Of a stretch of DNA of 64,000 nt, positions 13,577-21,910 are shown piece by piece; positions within the stretch are counted from its first letter, which is position 1, and the number at the start of each line of letters is the position of its first letter. This DNA comes from an uncultured cyanobacterium (GTDB lineage: Bacteria; Cyanobacteriota; Cyanobacteriia; Cyanobacteriales; Nostocaceae): assembly GCA_963706595.1 (NCBI GenBank), contig OY970166.1:1856001-1920000 (forward strand), written 5' to 3'. Made by a program: the position numbers and the translations under genes. Below the pieces are notes generated by a model. It was not told where the DNA came from. It did no database searches and was given only the letters and a program-made list of their open reading frames with translations.

Positions 13577-13912
13577 ATGAAAATTCCGTCTGATGCTATT
13601 ATTGCGGACGAAAAAATCACCGGCTACTTATTAGTACCACGAGAACAAGATGATAAATCAAAGTTTCTTGCCCAAGCTGGATTTACACAAGAAAACCCAA
13701 AACTCTTACAAGCAGCAATTCGACAACTGGCAGATTCAACATTAGCAACAAAAGATAGAGATAATGAATATGGAGTGTTCTATCGCGTCACTGGTGAATT
13801 AATCGGCTTAAATCAGCGAAACTTACCAGTGATTACAGTTTGGCTACAAAGGACTGCTGACAGAAAGTTTCAATTTATCACACTCAAACCTAACAGGGAG
13901 ACTTTTCGATGA
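13577..13912 (+). CDS. DUF6883-like protein (putative toxin/nuclease-like)
   Basis: A.I..EKI..YLL.P....KSKFL...GF, YG..Y...G.L, ITVW, FITL.P pattern. Confidence 0.7.
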   Translation: MKIPSDAIIADEKITGYLLVPREQDDKSKFLAQAGFTQENPKLLQAAIRQLADSTLATKDRDNEYGVFYRVTGELIGLNQRNLPVITVWLQRTADRKFQFITLKPNRETFR

Positions 13913-14154
13913 AATTTGAACTATACCAGCGTGTGGCTTTAAATCGTGACTTAAACGAATATCAGTTAAAACAAGGTGATGTGGCAACTTTAATTGATTT
14001 TGTTCCTCATCCTAGCAATGGTTCAGAAGGATGTGTTTTAGAAGTATTCAGTGCTATTGGTGAATCAATAGCTGTTGTCATCGTTCCCATAACTGATATT
14101 AAACCACTGAAAAATCACGAAATTTTAAGTGTTCGCTCTTTGGTGGAAATTTAA
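13909..14154 (+). CDS. DUF4926-like protein (partner of upstream gene)
   Basis: ELYQRVAL.RD....L..GDVAT, G.VLEVF.A.GE.IAVV.V; ATGA overlap. Confidence 0.75.
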   Translation: MKFELYQRVALNRDLNEYQLKQGDVATLIDFVPHPSNGSEGCVLEVFSAIGESIAVVIVPITDIKPLKNHEILSVRSLVEI

Positions 14155-14248
14155 TCTGTGCAGTAGCTCATTTTGACTCAATCTTTTATAATACGAGAAT
14201 CTGAGGGTTATTTATGTGAATGAATTAACACAGATATGCGGATATTTT

Positions 14249-14686
14249 TCAATTATTTGATTCTGGAAAAAAATCGGCTGATAAAATTTCTGTTAAGCTG
14301 TAACAACAAGTTTCAGGAAATAAAGATAAACCTGTTTCTTTTTCAGCGCTGATGGTAGCCAACGGATAAACTTTGTCTATAATTTCGGTAAGATGAGATT
14401 TCAGACTAGGATTTTCTTGCAGCAGTTGTTCTAAACGTAGACGTTGTTCTTTGATGGTTAATTGCCAACTGCGGGAACGGAGATTAGGCTGAAATTGCCA
14501 TTTAAGTAAGTGCATTATTAATATTTCTAATCTACTGGCTAATTGTCGTTTTTCAGACCGTCCCATATCTTCGATTTCTTCAGCAATTTTTAGCCAATCT
14601 AATTGATGTATTTGTCTTGTTCTCAACAGATGCGCTTGCTGTTGTGTCCAAGCATAAAAATCATTTTCATGGCTGGCTGGGTTCAT
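14249..14686 (-). CDS. DUF29 family protein
   Basis: DFYAW, LDW..IAEEIEDMGRSE, HLLKWQFQP..RSRSW..TI.EQR, NPSLK. Confidence 0.92.
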   Translation of the reverse strand: MNPASHENDFYAWTQQQAHLLRTRQIHQLDWLKIAEEIEDMGRSEKRQLASRLEILIMHLLKWQFQPNLRSRSWQLTIKEQRLRLEQLLQENPSLKSHLTEIIDKVYPLATISAEKETGLSLFPETCCYSLTEILSADFFPESNN

Positions 14687-14855
14687 AGTTTTTCAGTGAA
14701 TTGTATGGGGTTTCCGCGTCTGCTTGGGTACAAATATATATATCTGACTTGGGAGGACTTAATTTTTTAGCAATTATTTACAAATACCACTTGATTAAAT
14801 CGCTAGGATTATGTATTATATTAATTACTCATCCAAAAAATAAAAAAATATTTGA

Positions 14856-15060
14856 TCGCGCCAAGCGCGAGACGGTAAGAAGGGCAAAGAAAAAAGAGCA
14901 GAGTGCAGAGGGCAAAAGAGCAAAGGGCTAAAGAGTCCTCGCCGCCGCACCACTACAGACAACCCGAAAACCGATATTGTTGTACGCGTAGTCTGGGTTG
15001 AAGCTGTTGCGACACGGCAGAACGACAGCAAGCAGGATTGTGGTTCCATGAACCACCGCG
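14856..15060 (-). other. Putative DGR variable region plus downstream pyrimidine-rich tract and GC hairpin
   Basis: RGGSW...GFRVV CLec terminus rich in NNY codons; after the stop a CCCTTTGCTCTTTTGCCCT tract and the hairpin TCGCGC-TTG-GCGCGA. Confidence 0.6.
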
Positions 15061-16929
15061 CAGCAGCCGGGATTGATATTGATTATCATTATCACTTAAC
15101 CAAGCGCTACCGTCTGCGGGTGCATTATTATAATTTTCGTGCCACTCATCCTGACACCATTCCCATATATTACCACACATATCAAATAAACCAAAGGGGT
15201 TGGCATCAAATTTTCCCACATCGGTTGTTTGCTCTCGATATTCACCCTTTGGCCCTTGACCATAATTGCCTGGGTAAGTGGTTCCTTGATAATCCCAGTC
15301 TGTCCCTCGGTAATTAGCTAAATCCGTGGTAATTGTGTCACCAAAATAAAACGGCGTAGTTCTTCCCGCCCGACAAGCATATTCCCATTCAGCTTCACTG
15401 GGTAAGCGATAGGTTTTTCCAGTCTTTTGAGATATTCGGGCGCAAAACTCAACCGCGTCATCCCAAGAAACAGATTCTACAGGTCGATTAGCACCTTTAA
15501 AATGGGATGGGTCGGGATTTAAATCAATCTTGACTTTATCAAAAGCAGCAACGACTGCCCATTGAGCTTGAGTGACGGTATATTTCTCCATGAAAAAGTC
15601 TTGAATGGTGACGCTGTGCTGAGGACTTTCAGACTCACGTCGTTTTAGCTCATTTTTTGGCGAACCCATGAGAAATGTACCCCCAGGAATTTTCACCATA
15701 TCTATAACCACACCATTACCCAAGTCTTCTGTAAAATACTCGGCGCGTCCCCGACTGCGGTTGATAATTTGCCCTTGAGCATCCACCTTCACTATGTCAA
15801 ACTCAAATTGATTGGCTAAGTTTGGTGGTATTGGTTCAGGTGCGGTTAGTTTTTGTTGACCAATAATCCTTTTTTCTATTGGTGCTACATCTTCATCTCT
15901 CAAACCTAAATGTTGCTGATACTCTCTGAGGACATTGAGAGTTCTTTCACTCAGGGTCGGCTCATCTGCAATTGTCTCAACCAAGGCTTGTTTATATTCT
16001 TCTAATTTACCCTGATACTCTTGATATGGTTTTTGAACTTCCGCTTCAATAGAATTAGCCACACCAGAGTCAAGCTTCAAGCGATGGCGGAATGAGTTTA
16101 ACAGGCGACGGGCTATAGGAGTAAACTCGCCAAAATCATCAATGAGGCGTTCAACTTCCTTGCGATACTTCAGCCTGGGGTCATCCTTGGGCGACTTCGC
16201 CAAAACAATCGGACTACCCCGGTTCAAGGAATACATCTGTGGTGTCATGGCGGGGGATACTTCTTGCACTTTGCTTTTCGCATACTCATGCAACTCATCT
16301 ACTGCAATCCAACCATCCCCGTTTTTATCGGCTGCGCCAGTCGAAATCCCTTCTACCAGATAATTAGTATAAATCCCAAAGTCTAAACTTTCGGACTCCC
16401 AAGCCTTTTGTGTAGAACTACAAGCTGTGAGAATTGCCGTTCCTTCACCCCCTAACTGCTGCTTCAGGTCAATATCCCCACTATCTCTGGGTGTCATACC
16501 ATCGGCAAAAGCAGCACTATGACAGCAATCTAAAATTACCACTTTTCTCTTAGACTTGCTGAGATACATATAACTATGTACAGTTTCTGCTTTTAGGGCT
16601 GTGGGGAGGTTTAATTCTCCTTGATTATTTTTTTGAGTGATGGGAGTCGAGAAGTAAAAATCACCATTTTCGACGGTCAGCCCATGACCAGCAAAATAAA
16701 AAAGTACCAAATCATCTTTTTGACGATTCTGATACAAGTTAAAAATAGCAGTTTCCATTTCTTGCCGTTGAGGATTTATCAGCACAGTGACATCCTTCTC
16801 AGCAAAATCACCCCTTTCTGGGTCTACCAAAACTCCCCGCATCGCCGCAACATCTTTCTCCGCTTTGGGTAGCTGTGCTAATGGTGGCTTATATTCACTA
16901 ATCCCTATCAGTAGTGCTATTTTCGCCAT
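14928..16929 (-). CDS. Caspase (peptidase C14, EACC1-associated type) fused to an FGE-sulfatase/CLec domain; +1 frameshift at ~15016
   Basis: FAGHG and LDCCHS catalytic dyad; F.MGS, YRLPSEAEWEYACRAG, N.FGLFDM.GN.WEWC, RGGSW; removing one base restores ...SACRNSFNPDYAYNNIGFRVVCSGAAARTL-stop (666 aa). Confidence 0.88.
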
Positions 16930-16930
16930 T

Positions 16931-17323
16931 TTAGCTGTTTGATGTATTGTTCAAAAAATCCTGTGCTTTTTGGATAGCCAATTCCAATTCTTGTGCATTG
17001 CTAACTTCTACGTGGAGTTTTCTGCCATCAGCCGCTTCCAGATCCAGCTTAAGTCTTTTGTTGCCGAAGCGATCGCCCAGAAATTTAAACACAGTCTTAA
17101 TATGCGCCGGGTTAACTTGTGCTTTTAACAACCCCCACACATAGCCGCTTATACTCCTTGTACCCTGGGGTGCGTTTTCCTCTGCGACTAAACCTGCATC
17201 TTCTACACCATCAACTTTTTTTAACTGGGGGAGCAAATTTTGGACTTTTTTTTGCAAATCCTCATCATCCAAACCCAGTTCAGTGAGAGAAATCGTCACC
17301 TGAACGTTAGATGTATTTACCAT
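16931..17323 (-). CDS. EACC1-like effector-associated constant component
   Basis: 130 aa, DEDLQ..VQNL..QL, APQGTRS, single hydrophobic segment, LEAADGRKL.VE; ends 1 nt before the caspase ATG. Confidence 0.65.
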   Translation of the reverse strand: MVNTSNVQVTISLTELGLDDEDLQKKVQNLLPQLKKVDGVEDAGLVAEENAPQGTRSISGYVWGLLKAQVNPAHIKTVFKFLGDRFGNKRLKLDLEAADGRKLHVEVSNAQELELAIQKAQDFLNNTSNS

Positions 17324-17692
17324 ATCAAGCGCTTAAATATAATTTAGAGTCATTTTAAACGATTGTATCCGTTTTTCTGAGTAGTTTACGAAATATTCAG
17401 GGAGAAAACGCTGAATTTGCACTGTAACCCACATTTGATGTTTATGGGCAGTTTCAGTTGTTCAGATGGCTGGTTTGTTTCTCTGTGCTGGCTGTTGTTT
17501 CCCAATTTTTATGAAACGAACCACATAAAGCCTTCCGCATAGCTAGAGCCTCCGGCACGCTACCGCGAACGCTTATGGCGCTAGCCTCTCCCTTTGGGAG
17601 AAGACACCAAGACACTAAGGAATTATGTATATTAATTTACTTCTAAACTGCTGTAATTGGGAATTTTGACTTCTGGCTCAGGCGTTTTAGGG

Positions 17693-19846
17693 TTAAATAC
17701 CCAGGAATAAATCCTTGTAAGCTTCAGCCAAATCAGGATTAATTGCCTGCACCTGGGTGAAATCAGCCAGGGCTAATCCCCATTTTTTCTGCTCCTTGTA
17801 AACAAGACCACGATTGATATAAGCTTCAGCTAAATCAGGATTAATTGCCAGCGACCGATTGTAATCAGCCAGAGCTAATTCCCATTTTTTCTGCTGATAG
17901 TAAACCAGACCGCGATTGATGTAAGCTTCAGCCAAATCAGGATTAATTGCCAACGCCTGATTGTAATCACCCAGGGCTAATTCCCATTTTTTCTGCACAG
18001 AGTAAACATGACCGCGACGGTTGTAAGCTAGATCATAAAAAGGATTAATTGCCAGCGCTCGATTGTAATTACCCAGGGCTAATTCCCATTTTTTTTGCTG
18101 AGAGTAAACATGGCCGCGATTCATGAACGCATTAGCCAAATTGGGATTAATGGTCAGCGCCCGATAGTAATCAACCAGGGCTAATTCCCATTTTTTTTGC
18201 TCATAGTAAACCAGACCGCGATTGATGTAAGTATCAGCCAAATCAGGATTAATTACGATTACTTGGTTGAAATCAGCCAGGGCTAATTCCCATTTTTTCT
18301 GCTCATAGTAAACATGACCGCGACAGATATAAGCATTAGCCAAATCAGGATTATTTCGCAGCGCCCGACTATAATCAGCGAGGGCTAATTCCCATTTTTT
18401 CTGCACAGAGTAAACATGACCGCGTTTGTAGTAAGCTAGATCATAAAAAGGATTAATTGCCAGCGCCCGATTATAATCAGCGAGGGCTAATTCCCATTTT
18501 TTCTGCACAGAGTAAACATGACCGCGACAGATATAAGCATTAGCCAAATCGGGATTAATTTGCAGCAACTGATTGTAATCAGCCAGGGCTAATTCCCATT
18601 TTTTCTGGACAGAATAAACATTACTGCGATTGTTCTCAGCATCAGCCAAATCAGGAATTGCCAGCGCCCGATTATAATCAGCGAGGGCTAATTCCCATTT
18701 CTCCTGCTGCTTGTAAACGTTACCACGTTTGTAGTAAGCTAGATCATGAATAGGATTAATTGCGATCGCCCGATTATAATCAGCCAGGGCTAATTCCCAT
18801 TTTTCCTGCTTCTCGTAAACATGACCACGACAGATGTAAGCTACAGCATTATCAGGATTAATTTGCAGCACCTGGGTTAAATCAGCCAGTGCTAATTCCC
18901 ATTTTTCCTGGTTATTGTTAACATTTTTCCCGTGCCAAGATGACGGGGTAACTGCTGGACTCACAGGACGCAAAGCATGAATAACTTCTGCAACCGACTG
19001 AAAACGGTCTTTGGGGATGGGATGGGCTAACTTGTTCAGAATTTTACCCAATTTATCACTAACCACATTCCCATTCAAGTAATCCCGCCATACCCATTCT
19101 CCTTCTAGGTGACTATATAAATAAAAAGGGCTAACTCCTGTTAATAAATGTAGACAAGTCACCCCTAAACTATATAAATCACTGACAAAAAAGGGTTTCC
19201 CCATAGACTGTTCAGGAGCGCAATATTCCGCCGAACCGATAATTGTTCCTATAGCTGTGCGTTGCTGTTGCTTTACTACCTTGGCCGCGCCAAAGTCTAC
19301 TAAAAATAACTTGTTGTCACTGCTGCGCCGGATGATACTCTCTGGTTTAATATCTCGGTGAATTACTTGTTTACTGTGGACAAATTCTAGGATTTCTAAT
19401 ATTTCTAGCAATAATTCTCTAATCTGTTTTTCGCCAAATACACCATTATTATCTAACTCGGCTTGTAGGGTGTTTCCTTGCACAAATTCTTGCACTAAAT
19501 ATTGACGATTATCTACGATAAAATAAGCCATCAACTCAGGAATTTGTGGATGTTTCCCTAACTCTTCTAATCGTTGTGCTTGCTGTGCAAATAACCCGGA
19601 TGCTTTTTCAATGCTATCTGTCCCTTGCGCCTGGGGTAAAAACTGTTTGATTACACAATAGGGTTGGGACGGTTGATTTTGATCTGTAGCTAGAAATGTG
19701 CGACCAAAACCACCTTGACCTAAAATTGAGCGGGGTATATACCTTTCTGTCAGCATTAACTTACTACCGCATTTCTGACAGTATTTAAAATTGTCAGGGT
19801 TAGGGTGCAGACAGTCTGGGTTCAGACAATAGATCATGTTCATCAT
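17693..19846 (-). CDS. Ser/Thr kinase-like domain (probably inactive) with 4-Cys N-terminal prefix and ~12 TPR units
   Basis: [34 protein letters not shown]; 102-bp DNA repeats encoding QKKWELALADY..AL.INP..A.AY..RG.VY. Confidence 0.9.
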   Translation of the reverse strand: MMNMIYCLNPDCLHPNPDNFKYCQKCGSKLMLTERYIPRSILGQGGFGRTFLATDQNQPSQPYCVIKQFLPQAQGTDSIEKASGLFAQQAQRLEELGKHPQIPELMAYFIVDNRQYLVQEFVQGNTLQAELDNNGVFGEKQIRELLLEILEILEFVHSKQVIHRDIKPESIIRRSSDNKLFLVDFGAAKVVKQQQRTAIGTIIGSAEYCAPEQSMGKPFFVSDLYSLGVTCLHLLTGVSPFYLYSHLEGEWVWRDYLNGNVVSDKLGKILNKLAHPIPKDRFQSVAEVIHALRPVSPAVTPSSWHGKNVNNNQEKWELALADLTQVLQINPDNAVAYICRGHVYEKQEKWELALADYNRAIAINPIHDLAYYKRGNVYKQQEKWELALADYNRALAIPDLADAENNRSNVYSVQKKWELALADYNQLLQINPDLANAYICRGHVYSVQKKWELALADYNRALAINPFYDLAYYKRGHVYSVQKKWELALADYSRALRNNPDLANAYICRGHVYYEQKKWELALADFNQVIVINPDLADTYINRGLVYYEQKKWELALVDYYRALTINPNLANAFMNRGHVYSQQKKWELALGNYNRALAINPFYDLAYNRRGHVYSVQKKWELALGDYNQALAINPDLAEAYINRGLVYYQQKKWELALADYNRSLAINPDLAEAYINRGLVYKEQKKWGLALADFTQVQAINPDLAEAYKDLFLGI

Positions 19847-20178: not shown

Positions 20179-21910
20179 CTAAAAACCCAAGTCAGCTTTT
20201 GCTAATTCTGCCGCAGCGAATACTTCTGCATCTGGTTTTTCTTCCCAAGCGGGGTCTCCGATTTCTGCATAGAAGGTTGCGTCATAAGGACGAGTTTTCA
20301 CAACCACCGGCATGGGGACGGCATGACCTAAAATTAAAGCTTGTTGCTTTGAATCTAATTTGGCTAATACTGACCGCAAACCACCCGCACCAGATACACC
20401 TGTAAAAATAGCATCAATATCTTTATCATCATTGAGCAAAGCGGTGATTCGTGTGCCAATTTGAGACATCACTTCATTATCAATCCCGGATGGACGTTGG
20501 TCTACAACTAACAAAGTTACAAAATATTTTCGCAGTTCTCTGGCGATAGTTCCAAAGATTGTACTTTGTACCACTCCTGGGTCTAGAAAACGGTGCGCCT
20601 CTTCAATTGTAATCATTAATGGTGTGGGGCGATCGCATGGATTTTTGCTTTGTAAAAATGTATCGGCTTTTTTGACATAATGTGCATGAATTCTTCTGGT
20701 GATCATGTTAGTCACCAACATATAAGAAAGCATATTAGACTGAGAACCAAATTCTATAACTACGTTCTTCCCAGCTTCCAAAGACTGCACAATTTTACTA
20801 ATATAATTCTGTGGGCAAACTCCGCGCATATACTTTAAACTATCCATGCGGAGAAGTTTACGCTGTAATCCCATAATCGAACCTTTATGTCCCCGCTTTT
20901 CGTCGCAGAACATTTCGATTTCTTCGTTAGTCATATTCAGCAACTGGACAATCCAAGATTTGCCAAATTCGCTATATAAAATATTCGCATTATCCAAAGC
21001 TGCATCCGATAAGCCTAAATCTCGACTGCATAACTTGATATCTTCAACTTCCACTTGCTCATAACTCAAATATAGTTCTTGAGCATCACGCACACCCCGA
21101 CGTTTTGTCGATTCAGGATCAAGGGTGTAGACTTCCACTTTACCAGGAAATAGTTGCTTTAAGCCTTTAACAGGTACTAACATTTTTACCTTCGGCTACC
21201 GCTTCCCAGCCATACTCCGAGTGCATATCAAATATCAAGTTTACTGCCGCATTTTTACGGATAACCCCAGCTAAAAGTAAGCGGGTGAGGAAGGATTTAC
21301 CAGTCCCAGATTTACCAAATACGCCATTACTGCGTTCAACAAAGCGGTTTAAATCGATACAGACAGGTACATCCATATCTAAGGGTTTACCGATAGAGAA
21401 GTTTCGCCGTTGGGGGTCATCTTCCCAACCAAATACGCGGCGAAAATCATCCACACTGGCTTCGTAAACTTGGCTAAAGTGACTGGGAATCGTCTTCACC
21501 GGGAGTAATTCCATAGTCGTACTAGTTTGAGCCTGAAATGACGCTAAACCAGTTGCTGATGGGACAAAACCGTTAGCCGCTTTACCATTACTTGACGACA
21601 AAGATTCATCAGATTCGGGTGTGAACATCAACATCGGCGAGAGGTTAATCGTCCCATAAGTACCACTACCTGCTAAAACTTCTCGTAAAAAAGTGTCTTC
21701 CCAATTGGGGGGACTAGCAATAATGCGATCATTCGCAGTTCCCAATGCTACATCAGTCAGCATACAGAAAAAGCGCGATCGCAGTCCATGCACAACTAAA
21801 AATTTACCCACCCGCATATCTTCAACAGAAATATCCGGGTGTAGTCGTACTTCTAATCCCCCAGTCAAAGAACCTTGGATGACTGAACCTAATGGTTGTG
21901 CCGAATTCAT
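20179..21910 (-). CDS. HerA/DUF87 family helicase-like ATPase, split by a +1 indel at ~21173
   Basis: Walker A GKSGTGKS, FDMHSEYG, IEEAHRF, ARELRKY, DQRPS; removing one base joins the two ORFs (576 aa). Confidence 0.88.

Follow-up and report, generated by a model that had tools for sequence, protein, structure and literature searches.

The locus studied here raises a question: does the small gene in front of a caspase-CLec fusion encode a latent effector which the protease sets free, and is the receptor at the end of the protease still being rewritten? The window, i.e. the whole stretch of 64,000 nucleotides that was analysed, holds one copy of this arrangement together with its chromosomal surroundings. 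We find that the type of system is already in print and that the window locus is a further example of the described EACC1-caspase kind, whose copy in this strain is probably frozen and possibly dead.

Gene order and domains of the locus

On the minus strand, a 130-aa ORF (17323-16931) is followed, after a gap of one nucleotide (16930), by a 658-aa ORF (16929-14953), and the preliminary description was accurate in placing the end of the small ORF 1 nt before the caspase. The genes and domains are as follows.

16931 to 17323, minus strand: 130-aa member of a divergent EACC1 clade of cyanobacteria; latent effector predicted to form pores, its loop at residues 51-60 being a candidate for cleavage (Arg56)
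16195 to 16929, minus strand: caspase/orthocaspase (residues 1-245), EACC1-associated type; dyad of His82 and Cys136, Asp26 and Asp134 at metacaspase-like positions
15820 to 16194, minus strand: linker, residues 246-370; present in homologues at about 40-70% identity, apparently helical
14953 to 15819, minus strand: ligand-binding domain of CLec/FGE type, which in the assembly terminates out of frame, with the stop at 14953-14955
17693 to 19846, minus strand: Ser/Thr kinase-TPR, the upstream neighbour; two dead-kinase-type substitutions; in sister genomes this kinase and the same CLec form a direct fusion

Domain profiles agree with the fusion of a caspase to a CLec/FGE domain that had been read from the translation: PF00656 covers residues 3-234 of the 658-aa ORF (E 7e-21) and PF03781, FGE/CLec, residues 410-641 (E 5e-53). 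The caspase passes the profile NF047832 caspase_w_EACC1 ('caspase, EACC1-associated type') with 156 bits against a cut-off of 140, and its closest solved structures are plant metacaspases. The His-Cys dyad, likewise noted before, is intact, with His82 in FAGHG and Cys136 in DCC, and both residues are invariant across 64 aligned caspase domains. The CLec domain matches the Treponema TvpA chain 2y3c in sequence (E 5e-15). Formylglycine-generating enzymes carry an active-site cysteine motif after RGGS; when the window domain is aligned to an FGE-family chain this motif is absent, and the region is the variable repeat. A scan for promoters and terminators stayed at the level of shuffled sequence (6 against 5.9 and 4 against 3.1) and gave none upstream of the EACC1-caspase pair on the minus strand.

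The small gene belongs to a divergent EACC1 clade

Against PF19953 (EACC1), the 130-aa protein scores 12.5 bits (E 0.15), below the cut-off of 23.6. The family is nevertheless weakly matched by 29 of its 39 close homologues (best E 0.0017), no other family being matched by more than 9 of the 39. A profile search with the protein among 1.84 billion representatives returned 360 proteins at E<=0.001 and 191 at E<=1e-10. In a Pfam scan of 128 of the 150 profile matches listed, 22 short or partial ones being omitted, PF19953 was found at E<=0.01 in 27 of these 128 distant homologues and its gathering score was passed by 7. In the ESM Atlas, the EACC1 set takes 24 of 30 matches (0.91; 194 of 256 features; PF19953 on 17% of the cluster). 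Judged by these sequence comparisons the 130-aa protein is a member of a divergent cyanobacterial EACC1 clade, membership being transitive via homologues and not direct. Of the HMM check of EACC1 and C14 that the preliminary description proposed, the protease half holds (PF00656 and NF047832), and the EACC1 half fails for the query itself and holds through the seven homologues.

Many close relatives of the 130-aa protein bear the NCBI name 'sugar ABC transporter permease'. This label, as well as MerE and DUF1307, was rejected for the small protein, being based on weak or unsupported matches, and the present analysis re-labels the family of 191 representatives (E<=1e-10) whose close members carry that name. 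PADLOC models gave no match to the small protein. Among the best 80 of 185 relatives, the closest named record is a Nodularia genome (L066), at 97%, which makes the host a filamentous cyanobacterium of the Nostocales. Domains of the EACC1 clade also occur together with CHAT, TRADD-N, COR, TIR or caspase in single proteins (P0074, P0093, P0094, P0142, P0144, P0173).

The AlphaFold2 model of the 130-aa protein (pLDDT 79, pTM 0.68) has a beta-alpha-beta unit at residues 7-47, a loop modelled with low confidence (51-60) and, as its second half, beta-alpha-beta-beta-alpha at 61-128. As modelled, this succession of N-terminal unit, loop and C-terminal half agrees with the description of EACC1 in the available text of a recent preprint (10.1101/2025.11.14.688446). 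A Foldseek search of the model against the PDB gave no match at E<=0.001, with ferredoxin-like folds, weakly matched, at most.

EACC1 and caspase are linked across genomes

The genome scan confirmed 185 relatives of the small protein, the best 80 of which were analysed; because several of these loci come from one genome or genus, the 80 are not independent samples. A caspase lies directly downstream of the small gene at 73 of the 80, and 65 are full-length. Both catalytic motifs are kept in 64 of the 65 full domains, and 7 of the 80 loci are without an adjacent caspase. At 73 of 80 loci the pairing is far beyond chance, in accordance with the earlier statement that EACC1-type genes accompany caspases. 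A CLec terminus is found on 41 of the best-80 caspase loci, with avd and/or RT at most 5 kb away in 16 of the 41, and these EACC1-caspase-CLec homologues form one intact ORF in 34 cases and are broken in 7. Elsewhere the caspase ends in TPR, WD40, GUN4, a penicillin-binding protein or tails without family assignment; together with CLec, these named tails reproduce the constant-core, variable-tail pattern given in PMC7159879.

A pore released by the caspase is the probable output

The reading that we consider likely is that of an EACC1-caspase pair with a DGR-rewritten CLec tip, in which a ligand acts on the caspase, the caspase cuts EACC1 and the resulting pore leads to death. Binding of a ligand, which may come from a phage or another invader, to the CLec tip likely activates the caspase; the predicted next step is that the active caspase cleaves the exposed loop of EACC1, upon which the C-terminal half would open a pore in the membrane and cause cell death. 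Cleavage and pore formation would be expected here by homology with a characterised relative. Evans et al. (10.1101/2025.11.14.688446) report that a Ktedonobacter caspase cuts EACC1, an autoinhibited monomer, into pieces of 5.7 and 7.1 kDa, that only the C-terminal piece is toxic and that cleaved EACC1 leaks liposomes; their preprint names DGRs among the EACC1-protease partners. The preliminary description knew of no biochemical characterisation, a statement that this preprint overturns. Its idea of a receptor, a caspase, a cleavage and a gasdermin-like death fits our evidence and the published EACC1-caspase biochemistry; its view of the partner as a membrane protein does not. FGS/CLec domains have been proposed as invader sensors (PMC8195603, PMC10907252). 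In the passages covered of the literature on EACC1, DGR and orthocaspase, we found no experiment on a CLec that activates a caspase or on a CLec-triggered EACC1 pair; the preprint's Figure 6A and supplementary material may show this architecture and the sequence of the cleavage site. Against the main reading, a monomeric CLec offers no obvious clustering mechanism.

Where would the cut fall? In metacaspase-like caspases, an Asp pair goes with basic cleavage specificity. The window caspase is metacaspase-like and Asp26 and Asp134 are kept, which suggests that it too has basic specificity, and orthocaspases are reported to cut after basic residues (PMC6426788). Among 110 homologues, 90% have Lys or Arg at position 56 of the small protein, which makes it the basic column with the highest conservation, and a cut after Arg56 would yield pieces of about 6 and 8 kDa. 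Arg56 is not singled out by linkage to the caspase, however, because Lys or Arg at 56 is also kept in 6 of 6 alignable small proteins without an adjacent caspase, and because K89 and R85 are basic in 84-85%.

The CLec tip is a DGR variable repeat

The features of the 3' end of the gene are as follows.

14959 to 15069, minus strand: core of the DGR variable repeat, where 12 of the 31 adenines of the template (L063:1460-1569, G063) and 1 of its 79 other bases are altered and 1 nt is inserted
15012 to 15015, minus strand: place of the +1 insertion, where the template has an AAT codon; DGR slip or assembly error
14928 to 14958, minus strand: invariant, IMH-like 3' end that includes the in-frame stop; the target gene of the cassette at G000:C1:4.625 Mb ends in the identical sequence
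14840 to 14927, minus strand: pyrimidine-rich tract and 6-bp GC hairpin 3' of the gene; candidate cis element for homing

The terminus, previously called DGR-like, is a true variable repeat, as its changes against the template of G063 concentrate on adenines (Fisher p 4e-7), the template being that of this relative and not of the window's own genome (G000). The template was predicted from aligned repeats; when 301 family genomes were searched for the exact pattern, 7 gave matches and only G063 had the predicted template itself, in a cassette with the order target, avd, 352-aa RT, template. Compared with their own adjacent templates, the EACC1-caspase-CLec genes L069, L077, L103 and L115 show 12-15 adenine changes and zero others. 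Matching their templates at all but adenines, they make EACC1-caspase-CLec a regular DGR target. Folding of the stretch at 14840-14927 has a z of -3.0, against 0.5 and 0.04 for the other two stretches folded; at two other targets the candidate element is less clear.

The window's genome carries the cognate cassette, comprising a SEFIR/TIR-CLec target, avd and RT, 2.75 Mb away from the window gene. The CLec of the cassette target is 52-58% identical to the window CLec and groups in a different clade, but the two genes have the repeat family and the 3' end in common, which points to targeting in trans, in the sense of the 'remote variable protein' of PMC7517822.

The DGR generator has decayed in several lineages

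In G000 the cassette RT has 304 aa, as against 352 aa in G063; it is 94% identical to the latter up to codon 292, where homology stops and the gene runs on into what in G006 is sequence downstream of the template. The avd gene is present. No cognate template was found in G000 within the one contig covered, so a plasmid copy is possible. Template-like repeats at 3.654 Mb and 4.451 Mb of G000 C1 were considered as the source and rejected, as they match the G063 template at only about 66% and belong with other targets. The other four RTs of G000 show at most 26% identity or no match. Hence a complete active DGR, with full-length RT, accessory gene and cognate template, was not found in G000, avd being present, the RT truncated and the template missing. 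In G006 the orthologous RT breaks off at codon 127 and in G005 at codon 102, and in G004 neither avd nor RT lies within 1.5 kb of the target. The differing breakpoints in G000, G006 and G005 suggest independent losses and would document the repeated loss of one DGR generator within the genus; PMC7517822 had suggested such a loss before, and PMC3521204 reports truncated DGR RTs. Short palindromic REP-like repeats lie beside the breakpoints of truncated DGR cassettes (L051, L047, L054, L057) and might mediate deletions.

The receptor repertoire is probably frozen in the window strain. The module, presented as diversifying in the preliminary description, is probably not diversifying now, because the sole DGR-type RT found is truncated, the template is deleted and the sensor tip is out of frame.

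Is the frameshift real?

The frameshift noted earlier is present in the sequence: at 15015-15012 four bases stand in place of one template codon, and the 658-aa ORF has its stop at 14953, the canonical GFRVV terminus being read in a different frame with its stop at 14928. If the slip is real, the last CLec strand would be lost and the sensor likely misfolded, the caspase and EACC1 being intact. The window copy would then be a dead relic, in which the last CLec strand disappeared through a real DGR slip and the loss of the template bars rewriting; we regard the chances of this as evenly balanced. The insertion is located at a mutagenised AAT codon, and frameshifting indels were found in 11 of 372 DGRs, 74% of indels adjoining AAC (Wu et al., PMC5758913). 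Among 63 distinct gene ends 2 are shifted, that of the window gene and, as the one case in the 62 others, that of L103, which lies beside an intact DGR. The RT cut at codon 292, the absent template and the dead look of the neighbouring kinase argue in the same direction. Against a relic, EACC1 and the caspase are undamaged, and the G000 assembly is prone to indels. Tested with genes from relatives, 15 of 152 are frameshifted in G000 (13 distinct, among them dnaK, lpxC-like, lpxA-like and herA-like genes), as opposed to 1 of 151 in the reverse test; this amounts to about 9% of conserved genes and about 16-17 events in 180 kb, and many of the frameshifts are single inserted bases outside homopolymers. 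An assembly error is possible at such a rate, its chance being about 1% within the 110-nt repeat, a value close to the real rate, and 16-17% for the gene as a whole. A census of frameshifts from blastn gaps was discarded, as it was inflated by shadow ORFs and compensating gaps.

Given that the rates of DGR slip and of assembly error are similar, we put a real slip only a little above an even chance. Either the window copy was switched off by a real +1 slip, which has the slight advantage, or it is intact and mis-assembled, which falls somewhat short of even. None of the sequencing runs listed matched half of the query words at the frameshift and no RNA run was listed; contigs of 4 of 15 runs over 14000-18000 give almost no cover of the repeat. 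The indel-prone assembly calls for caution towards other frameshift findings from G000. A herA-like ATPase gene 4 kb away (20179-21910, minus strand) is split by one extra base and contiguous in relatives.

One chromosomal slot, several outputs

The locus occupies a slot flanked by hemN-like and herA-like genes, at which output swapping between kinase and caspase is recorded. In the window the kinase-TPR gene is followed by EACC1-caspase-CLec. The slot holds a kinase fused to a closely related CLec in G002, G003, G006, G007 and G009 (the G002 kinase being mostly deleted), EACC1-caspase-CLec in G001, G005 and G029, and EACC1 with a truncated caspase in G008. The kinase-CLec tips of G002 and G003 have the same template of origin as the window tip. 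In a tree of 30 CLec sequences the window CLec is not resolved nearer to the kinase or to the caspase alleles, and the tree favours neither direction of swapping. In the kinase-TPR of the window, Gln replaces the alpha-C Glu and Ser the catalytic-loop Asn, both original residues being kept in the four sister alleles checked; the protein at 17693-19846, which holds about 12 near-identical TPR repeats, is likely a pseudokinase. Genes with DUF6883, DUF4926 and DUF29 (13577-14686) lie in the same variable slot and are missing there in several relatives.

Could the same protease-effector wiring serve stress, differentiation or kin recognition between filaments, with CLec tuning endogenous signalling? 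The related CLec on a Ser/Thr kinase at the same site in five genomes would suit such a role, regulatory tuning was argued for in PMC7517822, and DnaK-fused versions are mentioned in the EACC1 preprint (10.1101/2025.11.14.688446). We nevertheless think it unlikely: the fast turnover of the site, with kinase, caspase and truncated alleles in 9 same-genus genomes, the 7 broken homologues out of 41 and the hypervariable tips would better fit an arms race, for which PMC10907252 argues likewise. It is also rather improbable that the locus is a hit-and-run adaptive immune locus, in which the template writes tips in trans into a slot that swaps a kinase for a caspase-EACC1 suicide pore, the generator is deleted lineage by lineage, so freezing the receptor that was selected, and RT slippage also serves to switch the lethal module off.

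The small partner is predicted to be soluble

For the EACC1-caspase pair of the main reading, the nature of the small protein before cleavage matters. Its 'single hydrophobic segment' was at first taken for a membrane anchor. The best Kyte-Doolittle mean over 19 residues is 0.47, and 1.6 or more is reached in merely 4 of 110 family members; residues 61-70 are modelled by AlphaFold2 as a beta-strand of a compact alpha/beta fold. The single transmembrane helix of the 2020 definition of EACC1 is thus absent from the 130-aa protein, and the prediction for the uncut partner is a soluble protein instead of one in the membrane. For a pore former, the low hydrophobicity of the clade is itself a point against the main reading. 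That EACC1 is instead a membrane-embedded sensor activating the caspase, with a CLec effector released by autoproteolysis, as proposed in 2020, is very unlikely. In its favour, PMC7159879 describes EACC1 as one transmembrane helix bearing a patch of small residues, and the 130-aa family has such a patch, GG-F-L-x-G. Against it, a hydrophobic stretch of transmembrane length is lacking, the segment is modelled as a strand within a sheet, and the later preprint (10.1101/2025.11.14.688446) has EACC1 as cleaved substrate and toxin.

Relation to known systems

As far as the available texts go, the closest relatives are the EACC1-caspase systems (Kaur et al. 2020, PMC7159879; EACC1-KrAvs12, 10.1101/2025.11.14.688446), with which the window module has in common a 5' EACC1 gene of similar size, an adjacent 3' caspase of the EACC1 type, a variable C-terminal domain and a predicted fold of two parts with a cleavable loop; the preprint names versions linked to DGRs. 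It differs from EACC1-KrAvs12 in that its EACC1 clade is mostly below the Pfam cut-off, in its CLec sensor (a STAND ATPase in KrAvs12), in a predicted P1 residue of Arg/Lys, where the modelled site of KrAvs12 is Asp, and in a sensor tip that is frameshifted as assembled. With the cyanobacterial orthocaspase-CLec DGR remote proteins (Vallota-Eastman et al. 2020, PMC7517822; Dore et al. 2024, PMC10907252) it shares an adenine-mutated C-terminal CLec, an N-terminal orthocaspase or kinase, remote targets and degraded cassettes. In the accessible parts of these papers, no link of the orthocaspase targets to an EACC1 substrate was seen (EACC has 0 matches in that of PMC10907252), whereas the present analysis follows a single template family through outputs of kinase, caspase and SEFIR/TIR type.

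Pepco-caspase-FGE modules also place a small pore-former upstream of a protease-CLec, but the Pepco effector is of another family, a pre-formed beta-barrel with C-terminal cleavage, and its caspase is of another clade, about 25% identical to that of the window. In bacterial gasdermin-protease pairs, the protease frees an autoinhibited pore former. Release of an autoinhibited pore former would be the common trait with the window pair; unlike gasdermins, the 130-aa protein has a small alpha/beta fold and no gasdermin match. For the ligands of DGR-diversified CLec domains in multicellular bacteria, coupling to EACC1 offers a life-or-death readout that screens of ligands or receptor variants could use, and the intact, cassette-linked homologues L069, L077 and L115 are better suited to such screening than the window copy.

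Other loci of the window's genome deserve mention. At L049 (G000:C1:3651703-3654610), Pepco (PF24393) is followed by caspase-CLec, a second protease-pore module, with a template-like repeat directly 3'; avd and RT gave no match within the 10 kb examined around it. L050 (G000:C1:4450700-4455209) combines a gene that is MoxR-like by eye and a 1023-aa CLec gene with its own template (13 adenine changes, 1 other), again with no match to avd or RT within the 10 kb examined. Two long non-DGR reverse transcriptases, possibly defence-associated, are encoded at G000:C1:2270679-2271200 and 5300742-5301404, in frames of 748 and 1196 aa.
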